64,000 nt of DNA, taken from contig CM119263.1 of assembly GCA_051294375.1 (NCBI GenBank), positions 6,425,645 through 6,489,644 of the forward strand. The letters run 5' to 3'. The stretch is from Paraspadella gotoi. Its lineage: Eukaryota > Animalia > Chaetognatha. Shown here in pieces: positions 1 through 54,776 of this stretch. The notes beneath the pieces were generated by a model, which made no database searches, was not told the origin of the DNA, and saw only the letters and a program-made list of their open reading frames with translations. Made by a program: the position numbers and the translations under genes. Position 1 is the first letter of the stretch; every line of letters starts with the position of its first letter.

Positions 1-662
1 ATCTAAACATAATATTAAGACATAATCTAAAACATATTGCATCCGATACTTATTTTCTACAAAATTTCTGAGCGAAGTTTGTTGATGGTACAAAATAATA
101 TATAATTGACCATCAATAATCCAAAATATAGAAAAATATTTCTTGAACAAGGGGGGGAAGATAAATAAATGTAAAGTATTCACATAGTTTGCTTGTTATT
201 ATTTGGATAAAAAAAACCATCGTAGTTATCAAACCATTCCTTTTTTCGGATTTTGACAAAAAAATAACTAAAATGTTAGTGAATCAAAAATCGCAGTTAT
301 GTAGATTACAAAACCGTTGATATTATTTTTAATTTAAATCTGCATCGAGAAGGAATAAAATTCTATCGGTGACGGTTTCTCATTCAGATTAATAAGAAAT
401 TCAAATTTCAATCCTTGACTTTTTGTTTGAAATTGAGTGACTGATTATAACCTAAGTTCGACTTCGTGAGTTTGAAAACAAAACCACAATAGTACTTGGC
501 TAGCGTTATATAACATAACATATGCCAATATAGATCTTCAAAGTTTGGTTTGGTTTTGCTTTAGATAGAAAAAATAATTGCAAAAAACAGAATTTAGTTC
601 AAAATTTTCTATTGAAGAGACAGTAATTATTTTTGAGTTAGTGATAGAACCGTTCAATATAA

Positions 663-739
663 GCAGTCCCTGAGCTTCGGATCAGGCTGTAACAACATGT
701 TACAGGCGGGGTTAAGCGCCCCCGTCCTCTTATAACTGC
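663..739 (-). ncRNA. Type-P5 twister ribozyme candidate in the 3' LTR
   Basis: Near-identical to 1107-1179 and 4647-4720 apart from small indels. Confidence 0.7.
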
Positions 740-1106
740 CAGACGACCACCGGGGTAGAACCCCGGACCTTTGGGTTGGGAGCGCGAATGACTTGCCTCC
801 GGCACAATGGCCGCTGAGTATGAACGGTTGGTGGAGTTTTAGTCCACCATACATCCCCCCCTCCCGGTAGGGAAGATGTTTCTTGCGTCTCTTCAATGAA
901 TTGTTGTTGCTGGTGGAAAGGTGCGTTCACCAAGTTGCAGGCATGATACGCCTGATGTGTTGTGGGGCGGAAGTGCCATCGCCAGGTTGAGGCATGTCGC
1001 CTGATAATGTTTGTTGTGTTTGCTGTTGTGTTCCGGAGTCGGGCATCAACCAATGAAGAGGACAGTAATTATTGTTTATAGTTAGTGATAGAACCGTTCA
1101 ATATAA

Positions 1107-1179
1107 GCAGTCCCTGAGCTCGGATCAGGCTGTAACACCATGTTACAGGCGGGTTAAGCGCCCCGTCCCTCTTAACTGC
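1107..1179 (-). ncRNA. Type-P5 twister ribozyme candidate in the 5' LTR
   Basis: Same fold as 4647-4720, with one base missing in loop L4 (possible read error). Confidence 0.7.
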
Positions 1180-1350
1180 CAGGACGACACCGGGCTAGAA
1201 CCCCGACCTTTGGGTTTGGGAAGGCGAATGACTTTTGCCTCCGGCACCAATGGCCGCTGATGAACGGTTGGTGGGTTTTAGTCCACCATACTATTTCTGA
1301 TTAACATACTGATTCGATATGAATTTAAAAATGGTAACGTTTATTTACAG

Positions 1351-4400: not shown

Positions 4401-7400
4401 ACGCTTTATTGGACAGGCTTTAGTGGTTTAAGGCCTCCATCATTCTTACAAGATAATGACATAGCAGTTCCCTGCAAGCTCTCAATCAAGATTCACTCAG
4501 TCTTGTTTATTCACACCCAAAGTACTTGATATCTCTATCAAGGATGTGTATATTACCAAAAACAGAGAAAAAACAAAAACAGTAAATATCACAATGAAGA
4601 GACAGTAATTATTGTTAAGTGTTAATGACAGAACCGTTCAATTAAAGCAGTCCCTGAGCTTCGGATCAGGCTGTAACACCATGTTACAGGCGGGTTAAGC
4701 GCCCCGTCCCTCTTAACTGCCAGGCGACCACCGGGCTAGAACCCGGGACCTTTGGGTTGGGAAGGCGAATGACTTTTCCTCCGGCACCAATGGCCGCTGA
4801 TGAACGGTTGGTGGACTTTCGTCCACCATAACAACAACAAAAACCACGAATTTACATTAGCTGAAAAGGTCAGCCATAACAAGTTCATTCATGGTCGAAT
4901 ATAACCGGATCATTCTTCGTCATGTCGTCGTCGTCAAATCAAAATACATTCAATTAAATATACTTTCGAAATAGAATTTTCTTTTTTATTGACTTAGTAT
5001 GCTGATTGTTTGATGCTTGTTAAAAGAACTTTTTGGCGAAACCTTTCCGAATTCTTGCAGATGCACGCAGTCTTCGCCTCCTTTGTTCTCCCAACTTCTG
5101 GGGGAATCGGCGGAAGAGACTCTCCCTCGGAGTCCCCCGGCGGTTCTTCCTTTCGGGGGATCAAACGTCGCCTTCAACATCTATCACGTGAGGGGACCTT
5201 TCATCAGAGATATGCAGCTCACCGCAGGGCCTCACTACATCGTCGAAGGCGACGAGGTTCCGTTCGAAGCGCAGATCAACCTAGAATCCATGAAAAACCT
5301 GGGTAAGTTCTAGTTATTTGCGAGTTTTTTGTTGCAACTCACTTTTCGGTTGGTAGGTAGGTCTGTCCGTTAATTTTTTTTTATATGTTCATATTGATTA
5401 ATATTATGAAAATTTGCAAAATTACTAATATTATATAATTTTCGATAACATTTGGTAAAAAGGTTAAATACTAGGAAATCCTCAATGTTTGTATATTTTA
5501 TACATATATGCAGACATTGAAAATGAGCTTACTTGTAACAAACCAAGGTAATGATATATGCGAAAAGAAAAATAACCGACAGGCTCGGTTCCAGTCGGCG
5601 AAAGTCAAATAGTTCCTCATAATTTTTTAAATATTTAGTTAATATAATTAATATTTTGCGAGGTGTTATTAAATGCTGTTTGAGCATGTTAAATATTTGT
5701 AAATATTTATAATTTATATTTATATTGTAATAATTATATATATGTTTTATACTTAAATGAATATAGTGACGTATTTATCGGGAAAGGCTTGTCAATGCGG
5801 TAACACACTGAAATTGCGGTTTTGTGTTTTTCTTAATTATCGATCCAACACGATGTTACGTAATTTTGGGGAGACAATTCGGCCGGATTCTAAAAAATTA
5901 GGTATTAAGGTATTATCACAAAACACGACCCAAACTCTAAAATCAAAGTCAAGCCAAAGTCTATCTTATTTCCTCGTTTTTCTATTCGATATCTGAATTA
6001 CCCGGATTGTGTTTCAATAACAATTTGTGATTTTTCTTTCTTAGGAATTGGTTTAAATGATTCCCTGGTAAAAATTTTGACGTTTGATTGGTCGATAGCG
6101 AACAACGTCTCCCAAGAAAGAGTTAACGTTTCTCCGACTGGCTTGGCCTCCTCAGTCAGGGTCCAAACCTTTCACAAGCGGGGAATTTATCCAATAGGTA
6201 TATATTTCTAATTTTGTCGCATCTAGACTTGATGCATTTACCAGTTTTTTACTTCTTTTTTTTGGTTCCGATTCCATCTGCGATGGTATAGTACTTTGTC
6301 TGATTTGTAGTTTAAATTTAAATTACTTACAGCGGTGGTCGTTTCAAACGCCATCTCTTTCGGAGCAATCGCTGACAACATTACCGTCCGCTCGCCCGCT
6401 CCCTATGATCTTCAAATTCGGCAGTCGTCGGAATCTACTCCGCCATCTTGCTTTCTATATGGGGATGGGTGAGCCCTTAATTATTTTGTTTTTTTAAATT
6501 AAATGAAAGGAGAATGCCTCATGGTGATTTGCCATTAAAAATTTTAATAAAATTGAGGTAATAAATTTTAACTTTCAAGTTAAATAGAATTACTAAGAAA
6601 AAATAAATTGAGAGCCGACCGAAATTTTAAGTCATATTCAGTATCAGCCAAAGTTAGAAACAGTTTCGTATATTAGTGAGTAGCATTTTTAAGATTATCA
6701 ACATTACGAACACATTAAAACATCGCTCCTGAAAGTACATTTTAAAAAAACCTTTAAAAAAAAAACGCAGGAACAATGCAGAAGAAAAACTTGAAATCTA
6801 AGAGAGCGAGAAAAATGTTTTTCTTCTGTGATCCCCTTTGTTATGTAAATTTAATCCGGTTCGTTATTTGCTCATTTCAGCAGAAATTTTCAGTTTTCAC
6901 TATTTACTTCCCCGGCCTCCACCCACTCGCCCCTTTATCTTGTCCCATAAAGATAAACCGATGCCATACCTCGCCCTGGCACTGGCTTTGCTGCCCCTTT
7001 CTCTTTTTTTCCTCATTGCTTCTTCTTCCTTTTAATATTTTTCTTCTATTCTCTTCTTAATTTTCCCCCTCTATTTTTCTTTTATTTCCTCTTCCTTTCT
7101 TCTCCTTTCTTTCTTTTTTCTTCCTTTCTTCTCCTCTGTTATCGTATTTCTTTTCCCTTTTACTATGTTTTCTTTTCTTCCTCCTTTGTGCTGGATCGAG
7201 GATTAAACGTTTTCAATGTTGAAGATAGACCAAAGTGTTTTCGCATTAGCATCGGATAGCAAAGACTACGCATAATTACTTATGTAGATGGTGAAGTATA
7301 TTTCGTAAAGTAGTGCTTTGGCTTTGTCTTGTTTATCGCATTAGCAAGTATAATTTGTTAAAAATATTTTTTATGGTAAATATAACGTATATAAAATAAT

Positions 7401-31282: not shown

Positions 31283-31324
<42 letters not shown>

Positions 31325-32100
31325 TTTCTAGATAATACTACTCACTATTTTCTTTTTGTTTAGAAAGCAATTTTTTTCTGCGCGTCTTTCTTTTTTTTTT
31401 TTAACTTTTCTCTCTTCCTTATTCCATTCATCGCCCCTTCCGGCCTCTTCCGTTGTTTGAACAGCGGAGGGAAGTTCGACGTTTTCGTGAGCGTCAACAA
31501 TTCGTTGTCGTCGTCGCGCGCGTCCGTCGTCCATTTCGTCGTCGGTTACGATTGTCAACCTCCGCGGTGGAAATCGACTCTCCTTCGTGCCGTTGCCCGG
31601 CCACGATGCCGGCTTCGGCGTCGTTCTCTGCAACCTCAAATTGACGCCGAAGCAACCAGTCTGGATCGAACCCAGGGTGAGTCGCTTAAACATAGTCCCC
31701 TTTGTTTTACTTTCTTTGCTCTTCGATGTTTGCGATGTATTACAGATGGATGAGATTAGATCTGTTTGTTTTAAAAATTCTCTGTATTCGATCTTTCTTT
31801 TTTGTTTGTGTGTTTAAGGAGTGTAACGAAAAATTCGTTTTGAACAACAATTTTAAACAGTTTCTCAGGACATGTTTCGACTCTGTTTCGAGTCTTCATC
31901 AGCAAGTGAAAATATTAGAGTCAGTTATCTCAAACATCAGTTTTGGAGAGAGAGAGAGAGAGAGAGTAAGAGAGAGAAAAAAAAAGAAAAAGAGTTTCCA
32001 ACAAAGAATTGAGTGAGGGATAGTGGTCAGATGTGAGGACAGGTGAAGGTAAAGGCAGGAAGAAGAGAGTGAGTGAATTGAAAATTGGAAAAATTGGTGA

Positions 32101-32147
<47 letters not shown>

Positions 32148-35100
32148 AAAGATGAATCAATACATTAGGCAATGTACAACATGATAAAATTAGAAGGAAT
32201 ACTAAATGTATAACAATAATTAATAAGTTAGTTATTGACTGAGTTTGAAATTGAAGTAAGACATAGAGTCGAAACAAATTGTTGTTCAAAAAAGAATTTT
32301 CGTTACACTCCTTTAAAAAAAATTCTCTGTAAATAGTTTCCTCTTTTCGTCGTTCAATTATTTTGTAGCCGCTCGATTTCATTAATTTTTTCCTCTTTCC
32401 CAACCAAGTGAAAGTCTCATGCGCGAAGACCCCAACAGTTCGTCACCGGTGGAGCGTGTGGAGGTTCGAGGACGGTGAGCGAACCAAAAGCGTACGGTTG
32501 GAGGATGGTCTTGTCACAAATTTGGATCATCGCAGTATTTATCTGCCGGAAGGAAGCCTCGACGTCGGTCATTACGTCTGGACGTTCACGTAAGCTTATA
32601 AGTTTTGCTTCGATTTCTAATGTCTATGCTGCTTTGTACTTAATTTTTTATTAGTTTCTGACTTTTTTAATAACTTCAATTGCACTGTGTGAAATCGAGG
32701 TATCCATGAACGGCACGATTCTCGAGGCAAACGCATCTTGCAAAGTGGACATCACCGATGAGCCTCTCAAGCTTTTTGTGGATGGCGGATCCTTCAAGCA
32801 AGTTTTCGTCTCGGAAGCGGTCGTTGTCAACTCTCGCATTAATCGAAAGTCGTTGGAAGGTTCGCGAGACTAAGTTAATTTACAAAGTAGTGGGAACCGC
32901 TAACCCCTTTTTGATTAACTGTAACTTACCTTCCAGGAATCGCCTTGGCCTGGGATTGTTATCCTCTCGATGGCTTCGGGAAACCCTGTTTTCCTCAGCT
33001 CTGTGCCGCTTCCAACCAACGTCACCTCTGTCTCCGTTCCGGCGTCGTCGTTCGACGTCTCCAACGGCGCCGCCTTCGTCTTCAACTTGACGGCGACCAC
33101 TGCCGGCGCCAACGCTTCCGTCGATCAAGTCATCCAGATCGTCGATCGCGGTTGTTGAGGTCAGTTGTTGTTGTAGTTTTGAAATGGGCTGAAATTGCCT
33201 GATGACTAAATTTTAATTTTTGTTATAATTATGTGAAAATTATTCACTAACCTATTTTTCTGTCTCCCTGACAGCCTCGCGTGGGAATGCGATCAATGTC
33301 GATCCGGGCGCGTCAACTCGAAACGAGCGACTTTACCTGCGAGCCCTTTGCAACGGAGCTATTTGTGATCGTGGTGCGGTTGAGTTGAAGTGGTCGCTAA
33401 GTCTGGTATTGGACGCGATCGCAACAGGATTTCAACGGTGAGTAGGCGTCGTAGTTTCCTTTGCTTTGCAATAGGTTTTGCAAGAATACAGAATGTAGTC
33501 CATCGATATTCGTTGATGTATTTTAAGGTCCTGTCCAGAAGCGAACCTCTATTTTTGGTACATATCCTTTGTTAGTCTCCCATGTTTGGTTTTTTGTTTA
33601 CTAGGAAACAGATTTTAATTATTCTCGGTGTCATTTTGTCACCTTCCTTTCTAATGAGTCTAAAAGAGTCCGTCCTCGCAGACACAAGAAAAGAAGAGCC
33701 CAAGTTTTGTTTAAAATGGAAACAGAAATGGAAAAAATACGTGATCCGCCTCCTATGCACTCGTTGCTTCTTTTCTTTCTAATCGCTATAGGGCCTCAAT
33801 CAGTTAGTTTTCCTGAGCATCTGTTTTTTTCCATATGATATGATGAAAGATTAAGAGCATTTTCATGTAGCAATTATTGTTTTAAAATAAAAATTATTAA
33901 TAACTTCATCGGCGGAAACTAAAATGGGCTAAATTTTAAAAGGTGAAAGTTTATGATAATATGATGAAACTTGAAGCTTTCCTGAAAAACACAAAAAGTC
34001 TTCAAATTTTTGTTCACTTTGTCTCACGACTTTTTCTTTCCTTTTGTTTCTCCCGTCGCTGGGAATTGTTTTAATGTTTGGTCGGCGAGAAAGAAGAAGG
34101 AAATGAATTCCCGCCAAGGAATCGTGTTTTTTAGCGCCAAACCAACGTTTTCCAAGTCAAGGTGAAAAGTAAGCCTTGGAGGCTTTTCCTCTCTTGCGTA
34201 CGTGCTGCCACAAAAATGACGAGACCGCCGGACCGCCGTCCATTATACGACGGACGAACCCCCTGTTTACCGACTTTACCGTCGATGTTTGCCAATCCTA
34301 TCACTCGGGGTTCCTCTCTTTATTTCGGATAATTTTTTTTCATGTACGACTGAAAATGCGCGTTCGTGATAGTTTTAATTCTTGCTAATGACGATTTTAA
34401 AGTAACCGTTACAATTTAAATGCCGTAATTTCGTTTATTTTAAAATAAAAAAGTTTTTTAATTGCTATTCGCTAACGGAGGTCGTTTTCTTTTTATGAGT
34501 TGTCCTGCGGGGAAGGAAGAAGCAATTATTGATTTTCTTTGCTGCTCAGCCGATTCCACGCCGATTCCACGCTGATTAAGGCTGAAATAGAGCAAATCCT
34601 CTGAGAGTGGAAGGAGCAAGAAAAATCGATGCTCTCAGAAAATATTAGGAAAATGTACGATCAAACGAAACTCGTACGGAACGTGGCAGAAAAATAACAT
34701 TCACTCTCAGTTTAGACTTTTCTTACCTAAACAATGATAACAATCATAGAGGAGGGAAACACTGAATTGATCTAAAGAAAAATAGACAGTTTTCTGAAGC
34801 ATGCTTTATTTCAAAAAAATATTTGTATTCAACGCACCACTTGAAGTTGAAAGATTCTTTTTTCTGGAAAACTCCGCTACGGAAAAATCCAGAAATCTTG
34901 CTCTTTTTGACATTTAACGACCGAGGGTCGTTTTTGTCCAGTTTTATTCGAACAACATCGAAAACGTGCGCAGATTTCGTATATAGTTTTGCGAAAATGA
35001 AGAAGTATAAGCTACATTGTGACCATTTAAAACCCGTCGCTAGAAAAAAATTCACCATACGAAAAAGTGTAAAGATTTTAATATTTTGACAAAAAGATAC

Positions 35101-36414
35101 TAGAAGACAAAACCGATACATTTTTATGTATAGATATCATGTCCTTCGGCATAACTTTTACTTAAAAAGTGAGAGGTAAATGATGGGCTTGAAAAATTTC
35201 TCCTCGCTCGATCCTCAATGCTTTTAAATTGAAAAAAATTCTTACTTTCGCGGACGATTTATGAAAAAGTCTTGAAAATTAGCAATCATATTGATTTTGC
35301 CTTAAAGCCCTTAAAAAATTGTATACTATGATATATTTTTTAATTCTGTAGCATAAAAAATATTTTCTTAACAAGGCTCTCTTATGATACTATATTATTA
35401 CATTATTATTACAGATTAATTTTTTACCAAGCCATAAATTCCAGGTGACGAATTTCCTTTTATTCTTATTGAAAAGCTCGAATTTACTCCTATCTTTTTA
35501 CAAAACAAAATCAATTATAAAGAAATTTATACATAATGTATGCCTCATGTCTTTATCTATATAATAAAAATTTTGAGTTCAACCGAATTTCAAATGTTAT
35601 TAAAACCTCCGCTAACTATTCTAATCTCGTCTCATGCCCAAAATTGAGGGAAAGTTGTTGTTGCGACGTCGTTTCCCGGTACATCCATCCATTATTTAGC
35701 GATCTTTATCAACTTTTCATGTTTTTCTCGTCGGCAACTATTTTCCTCCGGTACGTGAGGGTGCGCGCTATCACGCGACGACGTGACGCGGTCGCTGGAA
35801 CGTCACGTGAAAGGTCAGTGTCGCGCGCGCGTAACGCGCCTCGTCCTCGTCGACGTCCCTTGTCTCTCCATCCAGTTTTTTCTCCGCCTCTTCGTGTTTA
35901 ACGTCTCCGCAACGAAAGGGCTTCTTTCACTTTTCTCTACTTTACCTTTCTTAATTATTCCTTACTCGGAATGGAGGCATTGACTTTAATTGTAATTTTA
36001 TTTTTTTTTTATTTAACCTCATAAAGTTTTTTTTCAACGTACTTTTCCTCTTCAAAATTTTTTTATGAATGTTTTATCCACTTCATAATTACAAACACAA
36101 AAAAGTTTTATGATTTTTAATATGAACTTTCAGACTTATTTTGTCCGTTGAAGCGGATGAGAAAACGAGCTGCACCGAAATATTTGCCACTTCTGATTTA
36201 AAAACGCCTTTCTCTTCACGCCAGAATTCTCATTTAGCGACCTCGAACGAGATATATATATATGAAATTGGTACAACCAATAATAAAAATTATCCATTCA
36301 TTTAATAAATAAGCTATCTTGCCCCTGACTTTGGACAGGCTTTGGTGGTTTAAGGCCTCCATCACTCTTACAAGATAATGTCATAGCAGGTCCTGCAAGC
36401 TTTCAATTCCAAGA

Positions 36415-36456
<42 letters not shown>

Positions 36457-38267
36457 GAGAGAGAGAGAGAGAAAGAGAGACAGCGTGCGAGATATAGAGC
36501 GGGCTCCTTCATTCCCTGAGTCGGGCGGGTGTGGAAGAGGATGAAAGGGGATACTTCACTCCTTTTTTTCTGGGTGGTTGAGAACTTCCAAGGATGAACC
36601 GATCGAGTCAGCTTCTTTAACGTGTTAAAACTCGAAATGATTTATTGTGTGGAAAAATACTTGTATGGCTTCCGACCATCCTTTTCTGATTGATGGGTCT
36701 CTTTTAACTCACTTCCTTTTCCACTACAACTCCGATTTGGCATAAGTGGGGAATTTTTTTTTCCTGTTTTCCTGTTAATCAGCTTTAAAATTACTCTTAA
36801 CTTGATAAATTTTTTTATCAAGTTTCTAACATATTAGAAACTTGAAACTGAAACGAAAAAAAATAAATTCACAAGATTTTTGTTGTATTTTTTCTTGTTT
36901 AATTTGATTTAAAACCTTTGGTTAAAATTTCTATCTTCACCATCTGCGTTTAATTTCCTCTTTGGGAGTTTCTTCGCCTCGTTCCTCTCAATCCACGAAG
37001 GCATCATAAGCATTGACTCTGAATTCTCGCCCCTCGAACAGAAACTTTCCGCTCAAACTAAGGATTGCGATCGAATGGCAAAAAAAAAAGAAATAAAAAT
37101 TAAAAAAAAAACACTTTCTTTTCGATGCGTTTACTGCTCAACACTGACTTGTTTATTCCGACTAACAAAAGAAAAATATAACTCGATTTAAAAAAAAAAA
37201 CTGATGTAAAAAAAGCACGGAAGTAATTCAATTGTATAGTGCCGAGAAGAAAAACCATCGTTCGGACTTCGCCAAACAAATTAAAATTCGGCTCATATCA
37301 CGTCTTTAAAGTGGCGATTTGGATTTATGAGAGCATGGTTGAATCAGCTTAAAAAAACTATATTTATTTTTGTTCTTATAATTCTCTTCTCTTTTTCTCT
37401 CTCTCTCTCTCTCTGCAAACGTCTAAACACCCAGGGACGTACACGCTCAAACTCACGAGCTTTCCCCCTTCTGCTCAAGGATGAAAAAGGGGAAAAGAAG
37501 GCTAGTTGAAAAAAGAAAGTGAAAGTCGGAAATGTCAAGGATGAATTTATGTATGTCGTAGAGAAAGATCGTTGCGAAGAAAGGGTTGCATGTACATAAA
37601 GACTCGCTCTTAACCGCCTTTATCCCCCCCCNNNNNNNNNNNNNNNNNNNNNNNNNNNNNNNNNNNNNNNNNNNNNNNNNNNNNNNNNNNNNNNNNNNNN
37701 NNNNNNNNNNNNNNNNNNNNNNNNNNNNNNNNNNNNNNNNNNNNNNNNNNNNNNNNNNNNNNNNNNNNNNNNNNNNNNNNNNNNNNNNNNNNNNNNNNNN
37801 NNNNNNNNNNNNNNNNNNNNCAATATTCCCTCAGTGTTTTGGCGAAAGTGACGGCCTGGAACAAACTGGGTCAGGCAGTCTCGTCTCACGTCGCCCTCAC
37901 TCTCTTCGACCCTGTGGAGGTGGTGTCGGTCGTGGGCTCCCCCACTTCGGCCCCGGGACAAGCCACCCGGTTCGAGGTGAGGTTCTGGCGCGGCACCCGC
38001 GTCAGCTGCCTCTGGGACTTTGGCGACGGTTCCCAGCCCGTCTTCGCGCCCGCGTGTGAATCCGGACACGTCCGCGCTCATCGCTACGAAAGGTGCTGCT
38101 GTCCCGTCCGTTCCATCGATTTTTTTTTCGCTCGCTCTCGCCTTAATTAGAGGAAGAGAATGTTGGAGGTTTTTAGCCTAAGGGTCGGGGGTTTGTGTTA
38201 GAAAGAGAAATTTCCTCTACCGATTTAGTTTTTTTGAAAAAAAGATTTCACCCCTATTTATATTTAG

Positions 38268-38312
<45 letters not shown>

Positions 38313-39120
38313 TTTCTAGATAATACTACTCACTATTTTCTTTTTGTTTAGAAAGCAATTTTTTTCTGCGGTCTTTCTTTTTTTTTTTTAACTTTTTCTC
38401 TCTTCCTTATTCCATTCATCGCCCCCTTCCGGCCTCTTCCGTTGTTTGAACAGCGGAGGGAAGTTCGACGTTTTCGTGAGCGTCAACAATTCGTTGTCGT
38501 CGTCGCGCGCGTCCGTCGTCCATTTCGTCGTCGGTTACGATTGTCAACCTCCGCGGGTGGAAATCGACTCTCCTTCGGTGCCGTTGCCCGGCCACGATGC
38601 CGGCTTCGGCGTCGTTCTCTGCAACCTCAAATTGACGCCGAAGCAACCAGTCTGGATCGAACCCAGGGTGAGTCGCTTAAACATAGTCCCCTTTGTTTTA
38701 CTTTCTTTGCTCTTCGATGTTTGCGATGTATTACAGATGGATGAGATTGATATCTGTTTGTTTTAAAAAATTCTCTGTATTCGATCTTTCTTTTTGTTGT
38801 TTGTGTGTTTAAGGAGTGTAACGAAAAATTCGTTTTTGAACAACAATTTGTTAAACAGTTTCTCAGGACATGTTTCGACTCTGTTTCGAGTCTTCATCAG
38901 CAAGTGAAAGAGAACATATAAGAATGCGCAGGATTTTATTCGTAAAACATCAGTTTTGGAGAGAGAGAGAGAGAGAGAGAGAGTAAGAGAGAGAAAAAAA
39001 GAAAAGAGTTTCCAACAAAGAATTGAGTGAGGGATAGTGGTCAGATGTGAGGACAGGTGAAGGTAAAGGCAGGGAAGAAGAGAGTGAGTGAATTTGAAAA
39101 TTGGAAAAATTGTGAAGAGA

Positions 39121-39151
<31 letters not shown>

Positions 39152-42100
39152 AGAGAGTGGAGAGAGAAAGATGAATCAATACATTAGGCAATGTACAACA
39201 ATGATAATTAGAGAATAACTAAATGTATAACTATAATTAAATAAGTTAGTTATTGACTGAGTTTGAATTTGAAGTAAGACATAGAGTCGAAACAAATTGT
39301 TGTTCAAAAAAGAATTTTTCGTTACACTCCTTAAAAAAATTCTCTGTAAATAGTTTCCTCTTTTTCGTCGTTCAATTATTTTGTAGCCGCTCGATTTCAT
39401 TAATTTTTTCCTCTTTCCCAACCAAGGTGAAAGTCTCATGCGCGAAGACCCAAACAGTTCGTCACCGGTGGAGCGTGTGGAGGTTCGAGGACGGTGAGCG
39501 AACCAAAAGCGTACGGTTGGAGGATGGTCTTGTCACAAATTTGGATCATCGCAGTATTTATCTGCCGGAAGGAAGCCTCGACGTCGGTCATTACGTCTTG
39601 GACGTTCACGTAAGCTTATAAGTTTTGCTTCGATTTCTAATGTCTATGCTGCTTTGTACTTAATTTTTATTAGTTTTCTGACTTTTTTAATAACTTCAAT
39701 TGCACTTGTGAAATCGAGGTATCCATGAACGGCACGATTCTCGAGGCAAACGCATCTTGCAAAGTGGACATCACCGATGAGCCTCTCAAGCTTTTTGTGG
39801 ATGGCGGATCCTTCAAGCAAGTTTTCGTCTCGGAAGCGGTCGTTGTCAACTCTCGCATTAATCGAAAGTCGTTGGAAGGTTCGCGAGACTAAGTTAATTT
39901 ACAAAGTAGTGGGAACCGCTAACCCCCTTTTTGATTAACTGTAACTTACCTTCCAGGAATCGCCTTGGCCTGGGATTGTTATCCTCTCGATGGCTTCGGG
40001 AAACCCTGTTTCCTCAGCTCTGTGCCGCTTCCAACCAACGTCACCTCTGTCTCCGTTCCGGCGTCGTCGTTCGACGTCTCCAACGGCGCCGCCTTCGTCT
40101 TCAACTTGACGGCGACCACTGCCGGCGCCAACGCTTCCGTCGATCAAGTCATCCAGATCGTCGATCGCGGGTTGTTGAGGTCAGTTGTTGTTGTAGTTTT
40201 GAAATGGGCTGAAATTGCCTGATGACTAAATTTTTAATTTTTGTTATAATTATGTGAAAATTATTCACTAACCTATTTTTTCTGTCTCCCTGACAGCCTC
40301 GCGGTGGAATGCGATCAATGTCGATCCGGGCGCGTCAACTCGAACGAGCGACTTTACCTGCGAGCCCTTTGCAACGGAGCTATTTGTGATCGTGGTGCGG
40401 TTGAGTTGAAGTGGTCGCTAAGTCTGGTATTGGACGGATCGCAACAGGATTTCAACGGTGAGTAGGCGTCGTAGTTTCCTTGCTTTGCAATAGGTTTTGC
40501 AAGAATACAGAATGTAGTCCATCGATATTCGTTGATGTATTTTAAGGTCCTGTCCAGAAGCGACCTCTATTTTTTGGTACATATCCTTTGTTAGTCTCCC
40601 ATGTTTGGTTTTTTGTTTACTAGGAAACAGATTTTAATTATTCTCGGTGTCAGTTGTCACCTTCCTTTCTAATGAGTCTAAAAGAGTCCGTCCTCGCAGA
40701 CACAAGAAAAAGAGCCCAAGTTTTGTTTAAAATGGAACAGAAATGGAAAAAATACGTGATCCGCCTCCTATGCACTCGTTGCTTCTTTTCTTTCTAATCG
40801 CTATAGGGCCTCAATCAGTTAGTTTTTCCTGAGCATCTGTTTTTTTCCATATGATATGATGAAAGATTAAGAGCATTTTTCATGTAGCAATTATTGTTTT
40901 AAAATAAAAATTATTAATAACTTTCATCGGCGAAACTAAAAATGGGCTAAATTTTTAAAAAGGTGAAAGTTTATGATAATATGATGAAACTTGAAGCTTT
41001 CCTGAAAAAACACAAAAGTCTCAAATTTTTGTTCACTTTGTCTCACGACTTTTTCTTTCCTTCTTGTTCTCCCGTCGCTGGGGAATTGTTTAATGTTTGG
41101 TCGGCGAGAAAGAAGAAGGAAATGAAATTCCCCGCCAAGGAATCGTGTTTTAGCGCCAAACCAACGTTTTCCAAGTCAAGGTGAAAAGTAGCCTTGGAGG
41201 CTTTTCCCTCCTTGCGTACGTGCTGCCACAAAAATGACGAGGACCGCCGGACCGCCGTCCATTATACGACGGACGACCCCCTGTTTACCGACTTTACCGT
41301 CGATGTTTGCCAATCCTATCACTCGGGGTTCCTCTCTTATTTTCGGATAATTTTTTTTCATGTACGACTGAAAATGCGCGTTCGTGATAGTTTTAATTCT
41401 TGCTAATGACGATTTTAAAGTAACCGTTACAATTTAAATGCCGTAATTTCGTTTATTTTAAAATAAAAAAGTTTTTTAATTGCTATTCGCTAACGGAGGT
41501 CGTTTTCTTTTTATGAGTTGTCCTGCGGGGAAGGAAGAAGCAATTATTGATTTTCTTTGCTGCTCAGCCGATTCCACGCCGATTCCACGCTGATTAAGGC
41601 TGAAATAGAGCAAATCCTCTGAGAGTGGAAGGAGCAAGAAAAATCGATGCTCTCAGAAAATATTAGGAAAATGTACGATCAAACGAAACTCGTACGGAAC
41701 GTGCAGAAAAATAACATTCACTCTCAGTTTAGACTTTTCTTACCTAAACAATGATAACAATCATAGAGGAGGGAAACACTGAATTGATCTAAAGAAAAAT
41801 AGACAGTTTTCTGAAGCATGCTTTATTTCAAAAAAATATTTGTATTCAACGCACCACTTGAAGTTGAAAGATTCTTTTTTCTGAAAACTCCGCTACGGAA
41901 AAATCCAGAAATCTTGCTCTTTTTGACATTTAACGACCGAGGGTCGTTTTTGTCCAGTTTTATTCGAACAACATCGAAAACGTGCGCAGATTTCGTTATA
42001 TAGTTTTGCGAAAATGAAGAAGTATAAGCTACATTGTGACCATTTAAAACCCGTCGCTAGAAAAAAATTCACCATACGAAAAAGTGTAAAGATTTTAATA

Positions 42101-43436
42101 TTTTGACAAAAAGATACTAGAAGACAAAACCGATACATTTTTTATGTATAGATATCATGTCCTTCGGCATACTTTTACTTAAAAAGTGAGAGGTAAATGA
42201 TGGCTTGAAAAATTATCTCCTCGCTCGATCGCTCAATGCTTTTAAATGAAAAAAAATTCTTACTTTCCGGACGATTTATGAAAAAGTCTTGAAAATTAGC
42301 AATCATATTGATTTTGCCTTAAAGCCCTTAAAAAATTGTATACTATGATATATTTTTAATTCTGTAGCATAAAAAATATTTTCTTAACAAGGCTTTCTTA
42401 TGATACCTATATTATTACATTATTATTACAGATTAATTTTTTACCAGAGCCATAAATTCCAGGTGACGAATTTCCTTTTATTCTTATTGAAAAGCTCGAA
42501 TTTACTCCTATCTTTTTACAAAACAAAATCAATTATAAAGAAATTTATACATAATGTATGCCTCATGTCTTTATCTATATAATAAAATTTTGAGTTCAAC
42601 CGAATTTCAAATGGTTATTAAAACCTCCGCTAACTATTCTAATCTCGTCTCATGCCCAAAATTGAGGAAAGTTGTTGTTGCGACGTCCGTTTCCCGGTAC
42701 ATCCATCCATTATTTAGCGATCTTTATCAACTTTTCATGTTTTTCTCGTCGGCAACAATTTTCCTCCGGTACGTGAGGGTGCGCGCTATCACGCGACGAC
42801 GTGACGCGGTCGCTGGGAACGTCACGTGAAAGGTCACGTGTCGCGCCGCGTAACGCGCCTCGTCCTCGTCGACGTCCCTTGTCTCTCCATCCCAGTTTTT
42901 TCTCCGCCTCTCGTGTTTAACGTCTCCGCAACGAAAGGGCTTCTTTCACTTTTCTCTACTTTACCCTTTTCTTATTCATTCCTTACTCGGGAATGGAGGC
43001 ATTGACTTGTAATTTGTAATTTTAATTTTTTTTTATTTAACCTTCATAAAGTTTTTTTTCAACGTACTTTTCCTCTTCAAAATTTTTTTATGAATGTTTT
43101 ATCCTACTTCATAATTCAAAACCAAAAAAAGTTTTATGATTTTTAATATGACTTTCAGACTTATTTTGTCCGTTGAAGCGATGAGAAACGAGCTGCACCG
43201 TAATATTTGCCACTTCTGAATTTAAAAACGCCTTTCTCTTCACGCCAGAATTCTCATTTAGCGACCTCGAACGAGATATATATATATGAAATTGGTACAA
43301 CCAATATAAAAATTATCCATTCATTTAATAAATAAGCTATCTTGCCCCTGACTTTGGACAGGCTTTGGTGGTTTAAGGCCTCCATCACTCTTACAAGATA
43401 ATGTCATAGCAGGTCCCTGCAAGCTTTCAATCAAGA

Positions 43437-43512
<76 letters not shown>

Positions 43513-46500
43513 AAGAGAGACAGCGTGCGAGATATAGAGCCGGGCTCCTTCATTCCCTGAGTCGGGCGTGTGGAAGAGGATGAAAAGGGGAATACTTCAC
43601 TCCTTTCTTTTCTGGGTGGTTGAGAACTTCCAAGGATGAACCGATCGAGTCAGCTTCTTTAACGTGTTAAACTCGAAATGATTTATTGTGTGAAAAATAC
43701 TTGTATGGCTTCCGACCATCCTTTTCTTGATTGATGGGTCTCTTTTAACTCACTTCTTTCCACTTACAACTCCGATTTGGCATAAGTGGGGAATTTTTTT
43801 TTCCTGTTTTCCTGTTAATCAGCTTTAAAATTACTCTTAACTTGATAAATTTTTTTATCAAGTTTCTAACATATAGAAACTTGAAACTGAAACGAAAAAA
43901 ATAAATTCACAAGATTTTTGTTGTATTTTTCTTGTTTAATTTGATTTAAAACCTTTGGTTAAAATTTCTATCTTCACCATCTGCGTTTAATTTCCTCTTG
44001 GGAGTTTCTTCGCCTCGTTCCTTCTCAATCCACGAAGGCATCATAAGCATTGACTCTGAATTCTCGCCCCTCGAACAGAAACTTTCCGCTCAAACTAAGG
44101 ATTGCGATCGAATGGCAAAAAAAAAAGAAATAAAAATTAAAAAAAAAACACTTTCTTTTCGATGCGTTTACTGCTCAACACTGACTTGTTTATTCCCGAC
44201 TAACAAAAGAAAAATATAACTCGATTTAAAAAAAAAAACTGATGTAAAAAAAGCACGGAAGTAATTCAATTGTATAGGTGCCGAGAGAAAACCATCGTTC
44301 GGACTTCGCCAACAAATTAAATTCGGCTCAATCACGTCTTTAAAGTGGCGATTTGGTATGAGAGCATGGTTTGAATCAGCTTAAAAAAACCTATATTTAT
44401 TTTTGTTCTTATACAGTCCGATCGGATGACACACCTGCACAATTGCTCAGTTAATTACGAAGCAATGTAAAAATAATCTCTAAATGTTGAAACTTTCCGA
44501 AGCAGCATTTGTCAAACGAATTGTAATTAACTCTTCGAACTTAAAAAACACGTAAGTTTATTTTCAGTTCCGATCTCTTAAAACAATTATTTACAACTGT
44601 AATGATTGTTGATCTTACTCTGTAGTCTACACCTTGTTAGTGTATATCTGTTTCGAATTAAATTTTATTTTTGGCAGAGATTGTGATGGTTGTGACAGTA
44701 ATGTGAAGATGATCTGTTTATATGATTAAATCCGTTTTTGGCGGTTAATTTTATCTGTTACTCTTTCTTAGTATTAACTTGCCTACTTTAACGGTAGTAT
44801 TTCATACCCCGTTACTCGTCCGAGAATCAGCAGCACCTATGGCGCCGGAGGTAGCACGAGCTCCTCCCAACCCAAAGGACTCAGCTTCACGCCCTGCTGA
44901 TTCGCACAGAACAGCGCGACGGGGGCGTCTCACCCACCTATAGTGACTGACTACAGCCCGATCCGAAGTTCGGGACCTTGTGTGCAACGGACGGTGAACT
45001 GCTCGCGGCATCGTCTTCCACACTGCAATATTTTTAGTTGCGCCGCTAGTACTCAATAAGTCACTTTTCTGTTGGTTGATATGTCTGACAATCGGTCTGT
45101 ACTACTTGCGTTAAAAATATTTATGAGTTGGATAATAATTCATTGATTTGTTTTATCTTTTTTAGGTACTGTGCATTAAGTATGCTTGTTCAGTCACGTG
45201 ATTTTTTTACTGAAGATTACATGACCCGATATTAAATGCTGCATAACTCGTGAAAAACTGAGTTTTTTTAATAATTATTTGGCAGAATAGTGAAGTATCT
45301 GTGAATGATTCTTGTGTAATGTGTATGTGTTTTATAAAATTGGTACAACCAATATAAAAATTATCCATTCATTTAATAAACAAGCTATATTGCCCCTGAC
45401 TTTGGACAGGTTTTGGTGGTTTAAGGCCTTCATCACTCTTACAATCTTATATTTGTTTAGTCACATGACTGCAAAACTGGTGAAGTAATCATAAAGTAAA
45501 TGCGCGTATTTGGCCTAAAATTTGTTCGTTTTAATTAAAACTTTGTAGATTAACCATAGAATGTTTATCACTCCTATATTTTAAAGTTATGTTGTCTCGT
45601 TATTACGCAGGAATACATGTGATAATAAAGTCACTATGGCGCATCACATTGAAATTACCGTTTTTATTTATGCAAATGAATGTTTGATACAATCATTATA
45701 ATTTTGATAGGAAAAAATAGCAATAGTTTTGAGCAGAACATAATGAGTAATAAAAGGAAATTTTAACTCTCGTACCTTTCATGAAAAACGGTTTAAAAAA
45801 GTATTGCCGGCCATAATGTAAAATGTAAACAAATTGGGTCAAACACCGAGCCTTGAAATCTGCCATCATCGGATTTCAATTTGTCTGATTTTAAAGACAT
45901 TTTATAAAACATTATTTTATTGTATCCTGAACGCCTCAAAAAACCGAATAGCTTATTTATTAGTACTGTTGCATTAAATCCCGCTTTCCCAGTCTCAAAC
46001 AGATCAGTACTGTTATAAAGGATGTTTTATCACTTAAGGATCAAGGTATAAACTTTTGTAGTATAAAAATAAATAAAAAATAATCTTTATTTATAAAAAT
46101 TTATCTAAGTACTTTTGCTAAACCGTTGGAACCCAATGCTGTTCGAAATTAAGTTTTTAAAACGCGCCAGAAAAAGGATTGTCGGAAAAGATTGGTTCCA
46201 TTGAATGTGAGGAAGAGAGAGCGCCGCGGGTAGAATTTTTCAATCAGAATCTTGGAGCGCGCGCGTGCTCTCAGACAAGAAGTGGGTCCCCGAAGGAAGG
46301 AGATTATGAGTTTCATTATTTCGGTAAATATGGCCAAGCACGATATCACGCACGCGGGATAAGTCACGTGACGAGGGTCGCAGCAAGGGAAACGGATATT
46401 AGATAAGATTTTGAGCCTCTTTCGATTTCACCCGCTCCCGTCAACTTGCACTGATTTTTATCTCCACTTGCATCCAACCAATTTTCTTTTTTTTTTCAAA

Positions 46501-49500
46501 CTTTTTTATAATCTATGCTTTGCCCAAGATTGCCTTTAATGTATCGGTTTTTACAGGTCTTAAATTCCCTCAACATTGGTTATAATCTCATTTCTAATAA
46601 TATCATTTCCCCGTTTTCCCGTTTTTATTTAAACTGGATTTTAATGTTTACCGATTATTGAGCTGTTTCACTCTGACGCCTGAACTCCTCGAAGAGAAGA
46701 TCCTCACAAAAAAAAAAAATCTCGCGTGATTCTTTTCCCTAATAAAAATAAAAGGACATAATATCGCGAATAATGGATCGCTCCCTGCCGCTTAAAATTA
46801 TATATTAAGCCTCGCATTGCAGGAGTCAAAAAGAAATTTCTCTTATTACGAGTTATTATTTAGGACATTAACTTAGTGATGTTGTCCAGATATTTTTTTA
46901 AAGTTTTATTGCGGTTCTACTTTCCTCAACCGTCTCTCATTAAGCTTTTCAGTGTAGTGGCCTCAGAAAAAAACGAAAGGGTTTTTAACAGATTCGCCAA
47001 GTCAAGTATTTAGTTGTTTTTTTTTGTTTTTTTTTTCTGAAAAGAAAACGGAGCAAACAAATAATTGCGGTAATGGTTGCAAAAACTTATATATGTTAAC
47101 AATCAAAGTGAAGTATTTAGTAAAAAGAAACAATTATTTTTTCGTCACTGTCTCTAGTACAAAGTAACCTAAAATCGTTTCCGACATACTAACCAAATAC
47201 TGTTTGTTCGTTTAGCGAACCGAGCGACAGCTGGTCGCTGCCAAGTTTACCCAATGTCCTCGGTTGAGAAGGAGCTCGTCTCTCAAAGCCGCTTTTCAAA
47301 CTCCAAATCCCGCAGGGGAGAAAGAGCTGTCGCCCATCCCTTTTTTCTCCTTCGACCCTCTTTCGTCGGCGTCTCCCAATATCCGGTGACGTGGCGGTCG
47401 TTTAGCTCAGCGCTCCGGCTCTGCTTCCGCCGTGTCGAGACAATCTTATCGGACCGAAAAGGGGAAATTAGGGGAACTCGATTAGATTCCGTGGAGAAAC
47501 TTGATGAAAAAAATTTTTATGACCTCTAACTTTTCGGTGTACTGAAACGGGGCGATTCGCCCTGGAAATTTTTTTCAACGAGCTTGAAGAATAAAATCAT
47601 GTATAATATGTATTTATTTTGGTTTAATCTGTATTGTTGCGTACCTACCATGAGGACACTCGGTGGAAAAAGTATTTAGGATTAGTATTTAGGATTCGCC
47701 ACTGTTTGTCGAAATATTGATCCAAAAAATTTTCATGCCGGTGCATTAATGTGACTTGAGATCGAGATCAGAGAAAACCCAACTCCGAACGAATTTCAAA
47801 TCGGATTCGGAACCATCTGTCGGCCTTCGCTTTTGCTTAAATAAATTTAACTCCTTCGTATGTCCATTTGCGAATTACACCCATGAAATATTTACATAAG
47901 CTGTTGTTTTAATATAAACTGGATAATGGATTGTGGCAGCAAGACTTAAAGCTGCCTCACTGCTGTCCGTCCTCAGCCTCGTCTCAATGGCTGAGCAGGC
48001 TAAATCATCTCATTCCATCCGTGCGTCCCGGGTTCAATCCCTGGGTATCCCGGTTCTGGCTTAAATGTGACGGTGCCGGTATAAACATGCCAGTGACAGG
48101 AGGCGGTCACTGAGGGTCCGCAGCCCCTATGCCAGTTGGTGAGATACCCCGCGCCCCGGGTATCACATGCTATCCTCCCGTTGCCATAGGATATCCTTTC
48201 CATTTTTAATTTACCATTAATAATTTGATTTAATGCCGTCGAATAAGATAATTAAAAATATGGTGGTTTTTGTTTGGCATGGTTAAAAGTATGAAATGTT
48301 TTACATTTGCTGAACATAAGTGGACGATTGTTAAACATGGGCTAAATTGTACATTCGCCGACCGGAATTTTGTGGTCGGTTTTTCGTTTCTTATGAGCGA
48401 TATATTAAAATTTCATTACGTAAAAAAACAATAATAGTAAAAAAACTTTTAATTAAATATTTTATTTTGAAAACTATCCCTATCCCGAACCACAATTAAC
48501 CCTAACCAATTAAAGAAGAATGTAAAAAAAATTTTTGTCAACTAACGAAAATGTAAAAAAAAACATAAAATTAAAATGAATATTCATATTATTGTGTAAA
48601 CTGAAACTCGAGGATATTGTTAGAGGGAAAAAAAAAGTTAGGGTAGTTAAGGTAAAAAAGTCGAAAAATAAATTTACCCGAAACCTGATTAATAAAAAAA
48701 TAGTTGTTAGAAAATTTGTTTATAAAAAAAATTAAATTTGAAAATAATATGGTTTAACGGGCATAAAGGCTGTCGGCGAAAGAAAAATTTTACCATTTAA
48801 CGTATAACAAAAATTAATTTCCCTTGTATAATTACTTTAAACATTCGGAAACAACTGTTTACTACTTCATTGAATTTATTTTATGCCCTTTGTTGGATGT
48901 AATATCAATGTTTTTTTCATAACTATTTCATGTATTTGGTTTTTAGTTCCAAAGTTATCTTTTTCAACGATTCATACATTTTCACAAGTTTTCCGCCACT
49001 ACGGTATATTTGCATAAAATTATTTTGATAAGTCTTTAACTCTTTTGTAACAGGAGATTGAGAAAACTTTTGAGACCCTTAGTGATTTTATTTAATTTTC
49101 TCTTTTCCACCCCCACATTTTTTGGCTTTGCTTTTGCAAGAGAATCTGAGGTGTTTACTCCCTGGAGGGTTGTCGGAATTTTCTTCACATCTGGTCACGT
49201 GACGTCATCTTTTCAGCAGTCTTCAATTTGTCTAACACATTTTCCCGCGATTATTTCTCTGGATAGAAAAAATTTTGCATAATATTTCGGTTTTTTTTAG
49301 CTGCCTTGAAGAAATATTAAAGAAACGATTGCAACACATTGAGCGTAATCGACTCTAACCCTGGTTTTATTTTTTTTTCTTTAGAGAAAACAAAGTGTTT
49401 TTGAATTTTTTACGATTTTATTTTAATAGACGGACATGTTTCGACTCTTTGAATTCGTGTCTTCATCAGCATTTTTTTTCCCTATATTTTGACAAATAAT

Positions 49501-53392: not shown

Positions 53393-54776
53393 CCCGATAT
53401 TTCGCCAACTCTTTCCTTTTTCTTTCCACATTTCCCCCGCTTTTTTTCATCCACAACTCGTCCTTCTTCTTCTTTGCCATTAAGATGATTTCGCATTCCA
53501 TCTCCGGAGGGACGAATCTTCAGTCGCCGAAATCCGAGCCCAACGCCGAAGAAGAAACTGGAGACGCCGACGTCAACAGACAAATCGAATTTAACTTGTG
53601 AGTTTGTTTCACTCGGTTATTGAATATTATTAACTTAGTTTGTGCATGGAAGAGGAAGAGCGAAACCATTGATGCTGGGGTGGGGGAAAGAGAAGAAGGA
53701 AAAAGACGACGACGATGAAACCGATAATGCGGGTTAATTCGACGATGGAAGAGAGAGAGAGAGAAAGAGAGAGACTGAGAGATTTTTTTTTCTCCCTTTG
53801 GACTTTCACCCTAACCCTTTTTATCCGGATCGCTGCTTGCGGTGCCAGTACCCGTTGCGAAATAAGATGGATTAGCGGTGGAAAAATATGTGGTCCAAAA
53901 GAATAATTGAAAGCCGTTAAGGAAATCGTGGGGGAGGTGGGGGGGCGTAGAAAATCGATGGAAGTTGCGAGAGCACTCTCGGTAGAATCACTTGGATATT
54001 TTAAATGTAGTAGTACAGTCTTATATATTCAATGATTTATGTCACTTATGTTAATTTGGTACATTACTAGTAGTACTTAGTTGAATTTGTACCCAGGTAT
54101 TTTATGAAATAAGTACGACCAATATAAAAATTATCCATTCATTTAATAAATAAGCTAATAAATAAGCCCCTGACTTTGAACAGGCTATGCTGGGTTAATG
54201 CCTCCATCACTCCAGACTAACTGGCTTATTTCATTGCCTTTAGTATGTTTATTATGTATATTTCTTGTTTTCCTTCAATTATAGTTTTTATCGTTAAGAA
54301 AGATTGACCTATATCCCTTGAGCATAACTAAGTCACTCTCTGAAAAAATGTTAGGAGATGGAATTTCCCCATGAGTGAACCTCTTTAAAGAAAAAATGGG
54401 GAAAATCAACGTATTCCATCAACGAAAAATTTTTTTTTCTTCATCGCCTATAGTTTGAGTGGTTTTAAAAGAAGCTCGGTGAAGCATTAAAATTTTCACT
54501 GAGCCTCTTTACATCTTGTTATTGATTTTTTTTCCCTTGGAAAGCTCGTGCGTCGGCTTTGCAGTCGTTGTCCCTTTACTCACGGAGCCCCTTACCCCTT
54601 TCTAGGTTTGACGTTGATTTGTTGAAAAATAGGAAAGCATTTCTAAGGCTCGACGTTCTCCGTTACTCGCGTGGGTTAAAAAAAAGAAGGGCTGGGTGGA
54701 ATGAAGAGGTTGATGGAGGCGGTTGGATAGGAAAATTGTGAAGAGTTCAGCTTTAAAATCGAGGCGATCTCCTCTC

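Follow-up and report, generated by a model that had tools for sequence, protein, structure and literature searches.

A probable solo long terminal repeat combining a tRNA-type promoter with a predicted type-P5 twister ribozyme in the chaetognath Paraspadella gotoi

A high-copy element with fixed ends

We analyzed a stretch of 64,000 nucleotides of the Paraspadella gotoi genome (assembly GCA_051294375.1, contig CM119263.1, positions 6,425,645 to 6,489,644; hereafter the window, the coordinates of which are used throughout), with the focus on a short repeat, here denoted family 2, that is present in the window in a single copy (Table 1). This element is a 257 nt island of 57% GC within AT-rich DNA, with the termini TGTGGC…GCCATA (TG…TA) and with terminal 9-mers that are inverted-identical at 7 of 9 positions. 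It consists of a 5' hairpin, a tRNA-type promoter part and a fold of the type-P5 twister ribozyme; the 5' arm of the hairpin is alternatively predicted to pair with the 3' end of the element. The element is likely to be the solo long terminal repeat (LTR) of a non-coding, Helenus-like terminal-repeat retrotransposon in miniature (TRIM), because family 1, another family of the window that shares this order of modules, takes the form of LTR, primer-binding site (PBS), polypurine tract (PPT) and LTR, framed by a 4-bp duplication. The family-2 copy itself is without PBS, PPT or second LTR. Helenus elements are defined by a tRNA-like sequence in the LTR, a Gypsy-like PBS, a PPT and, in animals, a target-site duplication (TSD) of 4 bp (Kojima, 2024, PMC10886601). 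A TSD of this length is found at all three insertions for which it is resolvable, namely GGAT for family 2 and ATAG and TTGT for family 1.

Contigs of four public sequencing runs were aligned to positions 47600-48500; the summed contig depth obtained in this way is not a copy number. In three of the four runs, the depth jumps about 1000-fold or more exactly over the element, the fourth run being represented by one contig; in run X4, it amounts to 5.2e5-8.5e5 over the element vs 161-500 in the upstream flank. Loose contig ends cluster at 47930-47932 and 48188-48189, with at least 24 contigs ending at 47932 and at least 41 at 48188 in run X4, and at least 20 and at least 29, respectively, in run X5. 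Family 2 is a high-copy repeat with fixed ends at many insertion sites. Only four differences inside the element reach a 5% share in the contigs, and none of these falls on a conserved core position: 48042 (T-arm, G-U to G-C), 48074 and 48081 (both in helix P1), and 48130 (the unpaired joint between P4 and P5), where the copy in the window departs from the contig majority. Therefore, this copy is close to the family-2 majority. No joint linking the end of family 2 to its start is present among the 15 joints listed of 24, which is uninformative with respect to two-LTR copies because contigs break at repeats. Another short repeat, with a depth of up to 35,000 in run X4, lies in the right flank of the element, at ~48344-48405.

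Table 1. Positions of the family-2 element, its parts and the related elements in the window
Feature	Position	Strand	Details	Basis
Family-2 element, read as solo LTR of a Helenus-like TRIM	47932..48188	+		sequence, depth, contig ends
TSD, left copy	47928..47931	+	GGAT	sequence
TSD, right copy	48189..48192	+	GGAT	sequence
5' hairpin	47935..47956	+	6 bp, 10-nt loop, upstream of predicted RNA polymerase III (Pol III) start	predicted
Box A-like motif	47988..47999	+	TRGCY kept	sequence; Helenus motif description in PMC10886601
tRNA T-arm with box B	48028..48044	+	GGTTC at 48031-48035	
Type-P5 twister fold	48056..48135	+	P3, P5, minimal P1, T1 GACGG/UCCG, T2 GC/GC, C48121	
Predicted self-cleavage site	48082..48083	+	U^A	UAA position in loop L1 by Rfam twister consensus, PMC8501958
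P5	48056-60/48131-35	+	5 bp	
P2	48065-68/48085-88	+	4 bp	
P1	48074-76/48079-81	+	2-3 bp, one G-U	
P3	48091-97/48106-12	+	7 bp	
P4	48113-16/48125-28	+	4 bp	
Pseudoknot T1	48071-73/48118-20	+	3 bp	
Pseudoknot T2	48089-90/48123-24	+	2 bp	
3' hairpin	48143..48164	+	7 bp	predicted
First downstream run of 4 or more T	48203..48207	+	in flank; predicted Pol III stop for the family-2 solo copy	
Family-1 full element	613..1290	-	678 nt, TA…CA ends, TSD ATAG	
Family-1 full element, parts	1290-1054, 1053-852, 851-613	-	LTR, 202-nt internal part, LTR	
Family-1 PBS-like segment	1038..1052	-	TGG one base after 5' LTR; imperfect match to tRNA-Trp PBS	Fig. S2 of PMC10886601
Family-1 PPT	854..865	-	immediately before 3' LTR	
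Family-1 solo LTR	4595..4830	-	236 nt, TSD TTGT, twister 4654-4717	
Family 3, decayed family-1 relative	44800..45027	+	approximate ends; T2 AC/GU, L1 UCA for UAA	

The tRNA-type promoter part

The promoter part retains both internal boxes and all five pairs of the T-arm, and the acceptor stem is lost; ARAGORN called no tRNA genes. The box A of family 1 is more degenerate than that of family 2. Transcription by Pol III is predicted to start near 47981, i.e., ~49 nt of the element, including the small 5' hairpin, precede the start, and ~145 nt, containing the twister fold and the 3' hairpin, follow box B. No run of four T is found inside the family-2 element or the family-1 elements.

These features bear on whether family 2 is an LTR at all. 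It could be a tRNA-headed, SINE-like (short interspersed element) retrozyme or a miniature inverted-repeat transposable element with 4-bp duplications, in which case the likeness to family 1 would come from shared modules. Indeed, PBS, PPT and a second LTR were not seen for family 2, its ends are short inverted sequences, and a Pol III promoter is combined with a hammerhead in SINE-like repeats of Schistosoma (PMC6765202). However, copying by a SINE would not extend to the 49 nt that precede the promoter, whereas an LTR element would rebuild them from the 3' LTR, which argues against a SINE-like nature. The hallmarks of SINE2, that is, a start at the tRNA head, an A-rich or simple-repeat tail and TSDs of variable length, are not found either: the 49 nt stand before the head, the element is tailless, and its 3' end at 48188 is as sharp as the 5' end, with TG…TA termini and a 4-bp TSD. 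Furthermore, animal non-LTR retrozymes are tandem and have longer TSDs (PMC7229834), and family 1, which shares the layout, has two LTRs. We consider a SINE-like or miniature inverted-repeat origin very improbable.

The twister fold

All five helices and both pseudoknots of a twister, in the P5-permuted order, pair in family 2. All 18 tested pairs are observed, and none of 200,000 shuffles with the motif letters held fixed equals this count (maximum 17). A pattern that combines box B with the twister motifs matches twice in the window, in the family-2 copy and in one family-1 copy, and is not matched in 100 shuffles. On a pairing score that was written with the family-1 and family-2 elements in view, family 2 reaches 22 and family 1 reaches 21, vs at most 15 for 127 metagenome and viral loci with similar motif patterns. 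None of the 120 metagenome loci with the box B and twister pattern (from 33 of 64 parts of the collection), and none of the seven viral loci with a related pattern, shows the pairing.

The Rfam Twister-P5 consensus has the same motif order as the family-2 element. We also gathered twisters from phages by pattern; 14 of the 20 scanned loci match Rfam Twister-P5, 13 of them above threshold. A model was built from 18 phage twisters, 11 with Rfam matches and seven picked by eye, and was searched over the whole window; given that the patterns were designed with the family-2 motifs in mind, this model is not wholly independent. Among its 14 matches up to E 5 (the E-values are rough), two family-1 LTRs rank first (E 0.00026 and 0.00029) and family 2 ranks third (E 0.0056), followed by a further repeat, family 4 (E 0.032 twice), family 3 (0.052) and the third family-1 LTR (0.13). 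The GACGG/UCCG combination of family 2 also occurs in phage twisters above the Rfam threshold (L146, L179); L146-L195 (e.g., L146:198-256, minus strand) are a large set of near-identical phage contigs with a type-P5 twister and GACGG/UCCG.

The twister at 48056-48135 is predicted to self-cleave. The preliminary description of this locus, made from the sequence alone, proposed a solo LTR with the order hairpin, tRNA, twister, a 4-bp TSD and one TA terminus, as well as a complete twister fold with P2 fully paired and GACGG, UAA, UCCG and GC/GC kept, all of which is supported by the termini, ends, boxes and pairs reported above. The cut predicted there, at 48082/48083, coincides with U^AA of the fold. 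The description needs correction in that the tRNA part retains no more than boxes A and B and the T-arm, that P1 is minimal, and that C48121, which it overlooked, departs from the twister consensus.

Related families and the conservation of the fold

The family-1 full element has a twister fold, i.e., a predicted ribozyme, in both LTRs, together with PBS, PPT and a 4-bp TSD. The predicted cuts, 1156^1155 and 714^713, would delimit a unit RNA of 442 nt. For the circular fold of this unit, the value is -142.9, compared with -116±7 in 60 shuffles of single bases; this control is weak, and we do not use it as support. In two family-1 twisters (4654-4717 and 670-735, both on the minus strand), an alternative GGCG/CGCC pairing, which is the one chosen by the phage model, hides the cut site and one strand of T2; this pairing could be an off-state.

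Family 4 is an unrelated repeat, the copies of which vary at the 5' end and share the 3' end (36261-36422, 43285-43444, 45331-45444 and 54097-54212, with pieces at 4115-4198 and 4409-4499, all on the minus strand); it contains a minimal type-P5 twister-like fold. This fold has T1 GAUGG/UCCA, T2 AC/GU and a long P5, is without P3, and has the loop-less palindrome AGGCCU in place of P1, which suggests action as a dimer. Family 4 resembles the tail of a non-LTR element, Penelope-like or other, and the TRIM twister may have come from it.

Family 2 was initially regarded as unrelated in sequence to family 1. This was overstated: the global alignment of the two scores 72 vs 40±10 for shuffles, 0 of 300 of which reach 72, and the best local match, 15 of 17 positions, is at box B. 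Apart from box B and the twister motifs, the two families nevertheless have little sequence in common. The compensatory changes claimed for P5, P3 and P4 hold in the sense that all three helices are kept with different letters in families 1 and 2; the sequences are barely alignable, so that this is not a column-wise covariation statistic. In a MAFFT alignment of five twister domains, the helices did not align and no pair counts were made. Across the families, both pseudoknots change on both sides (T2 in family 3, T1 and T2 in family 4). That the fold is under selection, as the preliminary description had it, is a reasonable inference, because the helices and pseudoknots persist, in spite of different letters, in three TRIM-like families as well as in family 4; four families are not a statistic, and the comparison of P2, T1 and P5 pairing leaves out the family-1 solo LTR, the family-1 5' LTR and the third family-4 copy. 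The notion of an old multi-family class stands as far as several families go, including the two-LTR family 1 and the decayed family 3; its age is unsupported, with no relative found outside this genome in the metagenome and viral scans and no ribozyme in the published Helenus families inspected.

A proposed mechanism of propagation

We propose a scheme, to which as a whole we give an even chance, whereby the family-2 element is a solo TRIM LTR with promoter boxes and a twister, and the RNA of a two-LTR copy would be cut to unit length, circularized and reverse-transcribed by a partner element. Family 2 very probably has, or had, two-LTR masters. Pol III can quite confidently be expected to start near 47981 and to meet no 4-T run within the element. 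Cleavage at 48082^48083 would then probably leave a 5'-OH and a 2',3'-cyclic phosphate. With both LTRs cut, the terminal repeat required for strand transfer would be lost; an RtcB-type ligase might join the ends, a Gypsy-type reverse transcriptase (RT), primed by a tRNA at the PBS, might round the circle and rebuild both LTRs, the 49 nt ahead of the promoter included, and a Gypsy-type integrase might produce the 4-bp TSD. Taken jointly, we lean slightly toward these last steps.

The circle is favored because double cleavage leaves no terminal repeat, a problem that a circle solves. This is the reasoning put forward for plant retrozymes, in which double cleavage leaves no R repeat and the circle was proposed as the RT template (PMC4918200). 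RtcB circularizes animal retrozyme RNAs with an efficiency of 30-80% in vitro (PMC7229834), and in the engineered Tornado system a twister and RtcB make circles in cells (PMC11263348). The family-2 solo copy could not move alone because it is without PBS or PPT; at most, its RNA would be cut into two fragments, one tRNA-like of ~100 nt and one 3' of ~120 nt. Six long open reading frames (ORFs) of the window have no Pfam match, and the window yielded no candidate for the partner RT.

An active twister could also act without any circle, as a substitute terminator: RNA that escapes the cut in the 5' LTR and is cut in the 3' LTR would remain linear, and its ~100-nt terminal repeat, from the tRNA start to the cut, would serve ordinary LTR strand transfer. 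By eye, the twister occupies the place that a T-run has after the tRNA part in most of the animal Helenus LTRs inspected; the family-1 and family-2 elements are without a 4-T run; and competing folds and the minimal P1 could make cutting partial. By analogy, the short terminal repeat of Cassandra results from Pol III start and stop inside the LTRs (PMC10886601). However, the same ribozyme is present in both LTRs, so that the 5' repeat should be lost from most transcripts, and the cut ends are substrates of RtcB. Moreover, the fish Helenus LTRs inspected in PMC10886601 have neither a T-run nor a ribozyme. We regard the terminator function as the main alternative, unlikely, albeit with an appreciable chance of being correct.

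More broadly, we put forward the tentative hypothesis, which we rate somewhat below even, that animal LTR retrozymes exist as natural retrotransposons based on Pol III, twister and RtcB-made circular RNA, with a twister in place of the hammerhead, a tRNA-derived promoter of their own and at least three families in one invertebrate genome, where the ribozyme would derive from a twister-tailed non-LTR repeat.

Observations that weigh against an active ribozyme and a circular intermediate

Several observations weigh against this scheme. At the gathering score, Rfam yields mir-87 as the sole match in the whole window and does not call a twister; Rfam E-value scans covered 501, 101, 111 and 45 nt; those of 501 nt and 45 nt around the family-2 twister, and that of family 1, give no twister match, and the best result, on 101 nt, is twister-P1 with 15.4 bits (E 0.5). 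The gathering threshold of Rfam Twister-P5 (RF02684, clan CL00120) is 37.6 bits, so that the family-2 twister, although built like a member, is not an Rfam member. In nested folding, which does not score pseudoknots, the twister helices lie 7 kcal/mol above the predicted minimum, the pair probabilities of P1, P2 and P4 are near 0, and the folding z-scores are 0.59 and -0.93. In family 1, P2 is bulged, one LTR is without the A in loop 4, the PBS is imperfect, and the likeness between the two LTRs is only 89.5%, numerous small indels having arisen through age or assembly error. The window contains no two-LTR copy of family 2, the absence of 4-T runs falls short of significance (P 0.54 and 0.26), and an intact twister, which would fold anew once the circle is closed, could cut it open again.

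The core letters (U^AA, the catalytic G and A, and the loop-4 motif) are kept, with the exception of C48121, which replaces a consensus A (A28 in the numbering of the rice twister Osa-1-4). A further point on the negative side is that none of the 50 phage loci in which the equivalent position was left free has C there (49 have A and one has T; most belong to a single lineage). In the mutagenesis of Osa-1-4 by Kobori and Yokobayashi (PMC5113685), the relative activity is 1.00 for A28C and 0.86 for the C27G/G47C swap, which corresponds to GACGG/UCCG of family 2 (values located by row position in the matrix and verified against A28G = 0.48), and P1 is tolerant to changes; this assay is a 2-hour end point for single and double changes in another twister and may hide large rate losses, which also counts against activity. 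By analogy with Osa-1-4, both core deviations of the family-2 twister would be tolerated.

In view of the Rfam miss, the unfavorable nested fold, C48121 and the tiny P1, family 2 might belong to a Helenus-type TRIM of the ordinary kind. Its twister would then be a passenger that was acquired from another retroelement, is now slow or silent, and persists through descent or for use as a structural handle. The decayed L1 of family 3 fits this possibility, and family 4, a separate twister-bearing repeat in the window, is a possible donor. Against it stand the 18 of 18 tested pairs and both pseudoknots, which are intact in a young high-copy family and whose stems differ from those of family 1, and the fact that the deviations are of kinds known to be tolerated. 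We find a passenger twister improbable and retain the predicted active twister as the preferred reading. If it is correct, Rfam thresholds miss short-P1 twisters, which may be common in invertebrate repeats.

Other features of the window

An intronless ORF similar to EFHB (EF-hand domain family member B; 1582-3348, minus strand) is flanked by the two family-1 insertions, of which the two-LTR copy is located ~290 nt downstream of it on the same strand. Its best named relatives, from sea urchin and brachiopod, are 44-45% identical, and the best unnamed relatives are 60% identical. A mir-87 precursor (Rfam, 61 bits) is found at 63277-63356 on the plus strand. Both features mark the window as animal DNA, and mir-87 points to a protostome. 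The window also includes a ~7.0-kb near-identical tandem duplication (~30800-37200 and ~37800-44200), possibly two haplotypes in the assembly, and long imperfect inverted repeats (~16600-17300 and ~23300-24000) that flank ~6 kb of GC-rich DNA, possibly a DNA transposon, in which the tested ORFs are without Pfam match.

Comparison with known systems

The closest relatives in anatomy are the Helenus TRIMs (TRIMp3), which are thought to have several origins (PMC10886601). The likeness includes boxes A and B in a short LTR, a non-functional tRNA fold, the 4-bp TSD and solo LTRs and, for family 1, a PBS and PPT between the LTRs and a length of 678 nt, within the 311-1263 bp of Helenus; TA…CA and TG…TA ends occur among Helenus consensuses, with TA termini occasional there. 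Family 1 thus has the Helenus anatomy (two LTRs, PBS, PPT, less than 1.3 kb, non-coding; the PBS is imperfect and Trp-like), and family 2 has the solo-LTR part of it. The preliminary description did not take into account that tRNA-in-LTR TRIMs with 4-bp duplications had already been described as a group (Helenus). Among the differences, the published Helenus LTRs inspected stop a few tens of bases past box B, often in T-rich sequence, and the host appears to be outside the species annotated in the consulted part of that paper.

The text of PMC10886601 does not contain "twister", and its single instance of "ribozyme" belongs to a reference. The loop-4 strings gtccgaagc, gtcccaagc and tccgaagc have no occurrence in its supplement, where line wraps may hide some, and two shorter twister strings have one occurrence each, in contexts that are unrelated. 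We also considered whether twisters are hidden in the published animal Helenus families, which is unsupported by the families inspected and by the string search of the supplement.

Plant LTR retrozymes (Cervera et al., 2016, PMC4918200) are similar in being non-coding, with a ribozyme in each LTR (a predicted one in family 1), PBS, PPT, 4-bp TSD and solo LTRs, and in the predicted copying of a circle. They have a type III hammerhead, LTRs of ~350 bp and a middle part of 600-1000 bp, and their cleavage and circles are demonstrated. The elements in the window have instead twister-P5, an animal host, LTRs of ~240-257 bp, a middle part of 202 bp and an internal tRNA-type promoter, and their cleavage and circles are predictions. 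Rfam finds no hammerhead in the window, so that the elements lack the ribozyme by which LTR retrozymes are defined. The system therefore resembles, on paper, both Helenus and LTR retrozymes and is a full member of neither, given the module foreign to Helenus and the missing hammerhead.

Among twisters, RF02684 shares with family 2 the motif order P2-GA(C/G)GG-P1-UAA-P2-GC-P4-GUCC(C/G)xAGCC-P4, both pseudoknots and the U^A site; family 2 differs in a P1 of 2-3 bp vs about 8, an extra P3 of 7 bp, a closed P5, C at the A28 equivalent and a sub-threshold score. The twister T-variants of Schistosoma Perere-3 (PMC8501958) are likewise self-cleaving RNAs in an animal retroelement, but are type P1 and are located at the 5' end of a non-LTR element (LINE). 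The SINE-like repeats mentioned above combine self-cleaving RNA with an upstream Pol III promoter, but contain a hammerhead and are tandem, without LTR, PBS or PPT (PMC6765202).

We found no report of a twister in an LTR or TRIM in the literature searched, a scope outside which lie most subscription papers, Repbase, Dfam and the twister list of Roth et al. (2014), the last three of which could contain elements of this kind. The combination of a twister and tRNA boxes in an LTR is, in this sense, one not found in the literature, whereas tRNA-in-LTR TRIMs and plant elements with a ribozyme in the LTR are already known.

To our knowledge, LTR retrozymes have been described only from plants, with hammerheads, and few biological roles have been assigned to twister ribozymes. 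An animal TRIM that joins a Pol III promoter and a twister in each LTR would offer a direct test of what eukaryotic twisters do, and the same system would test whether a circular RNA that has no terminal repeat can serve LTR reverse transcription. In the proposed mechanism, it resembles Tornado, in which twister cuts produce RtcB-compatible ends that are joined to a circle in animal cells (PMC11263348). Tornado is engineered, with two different flanking ribozymes, whereas the system in the window is natural, with one ribozyme repeated in two LTRs, and, if the proposed mechanism is correct, would be a natural counterpart of this engineered circular-RNA system.

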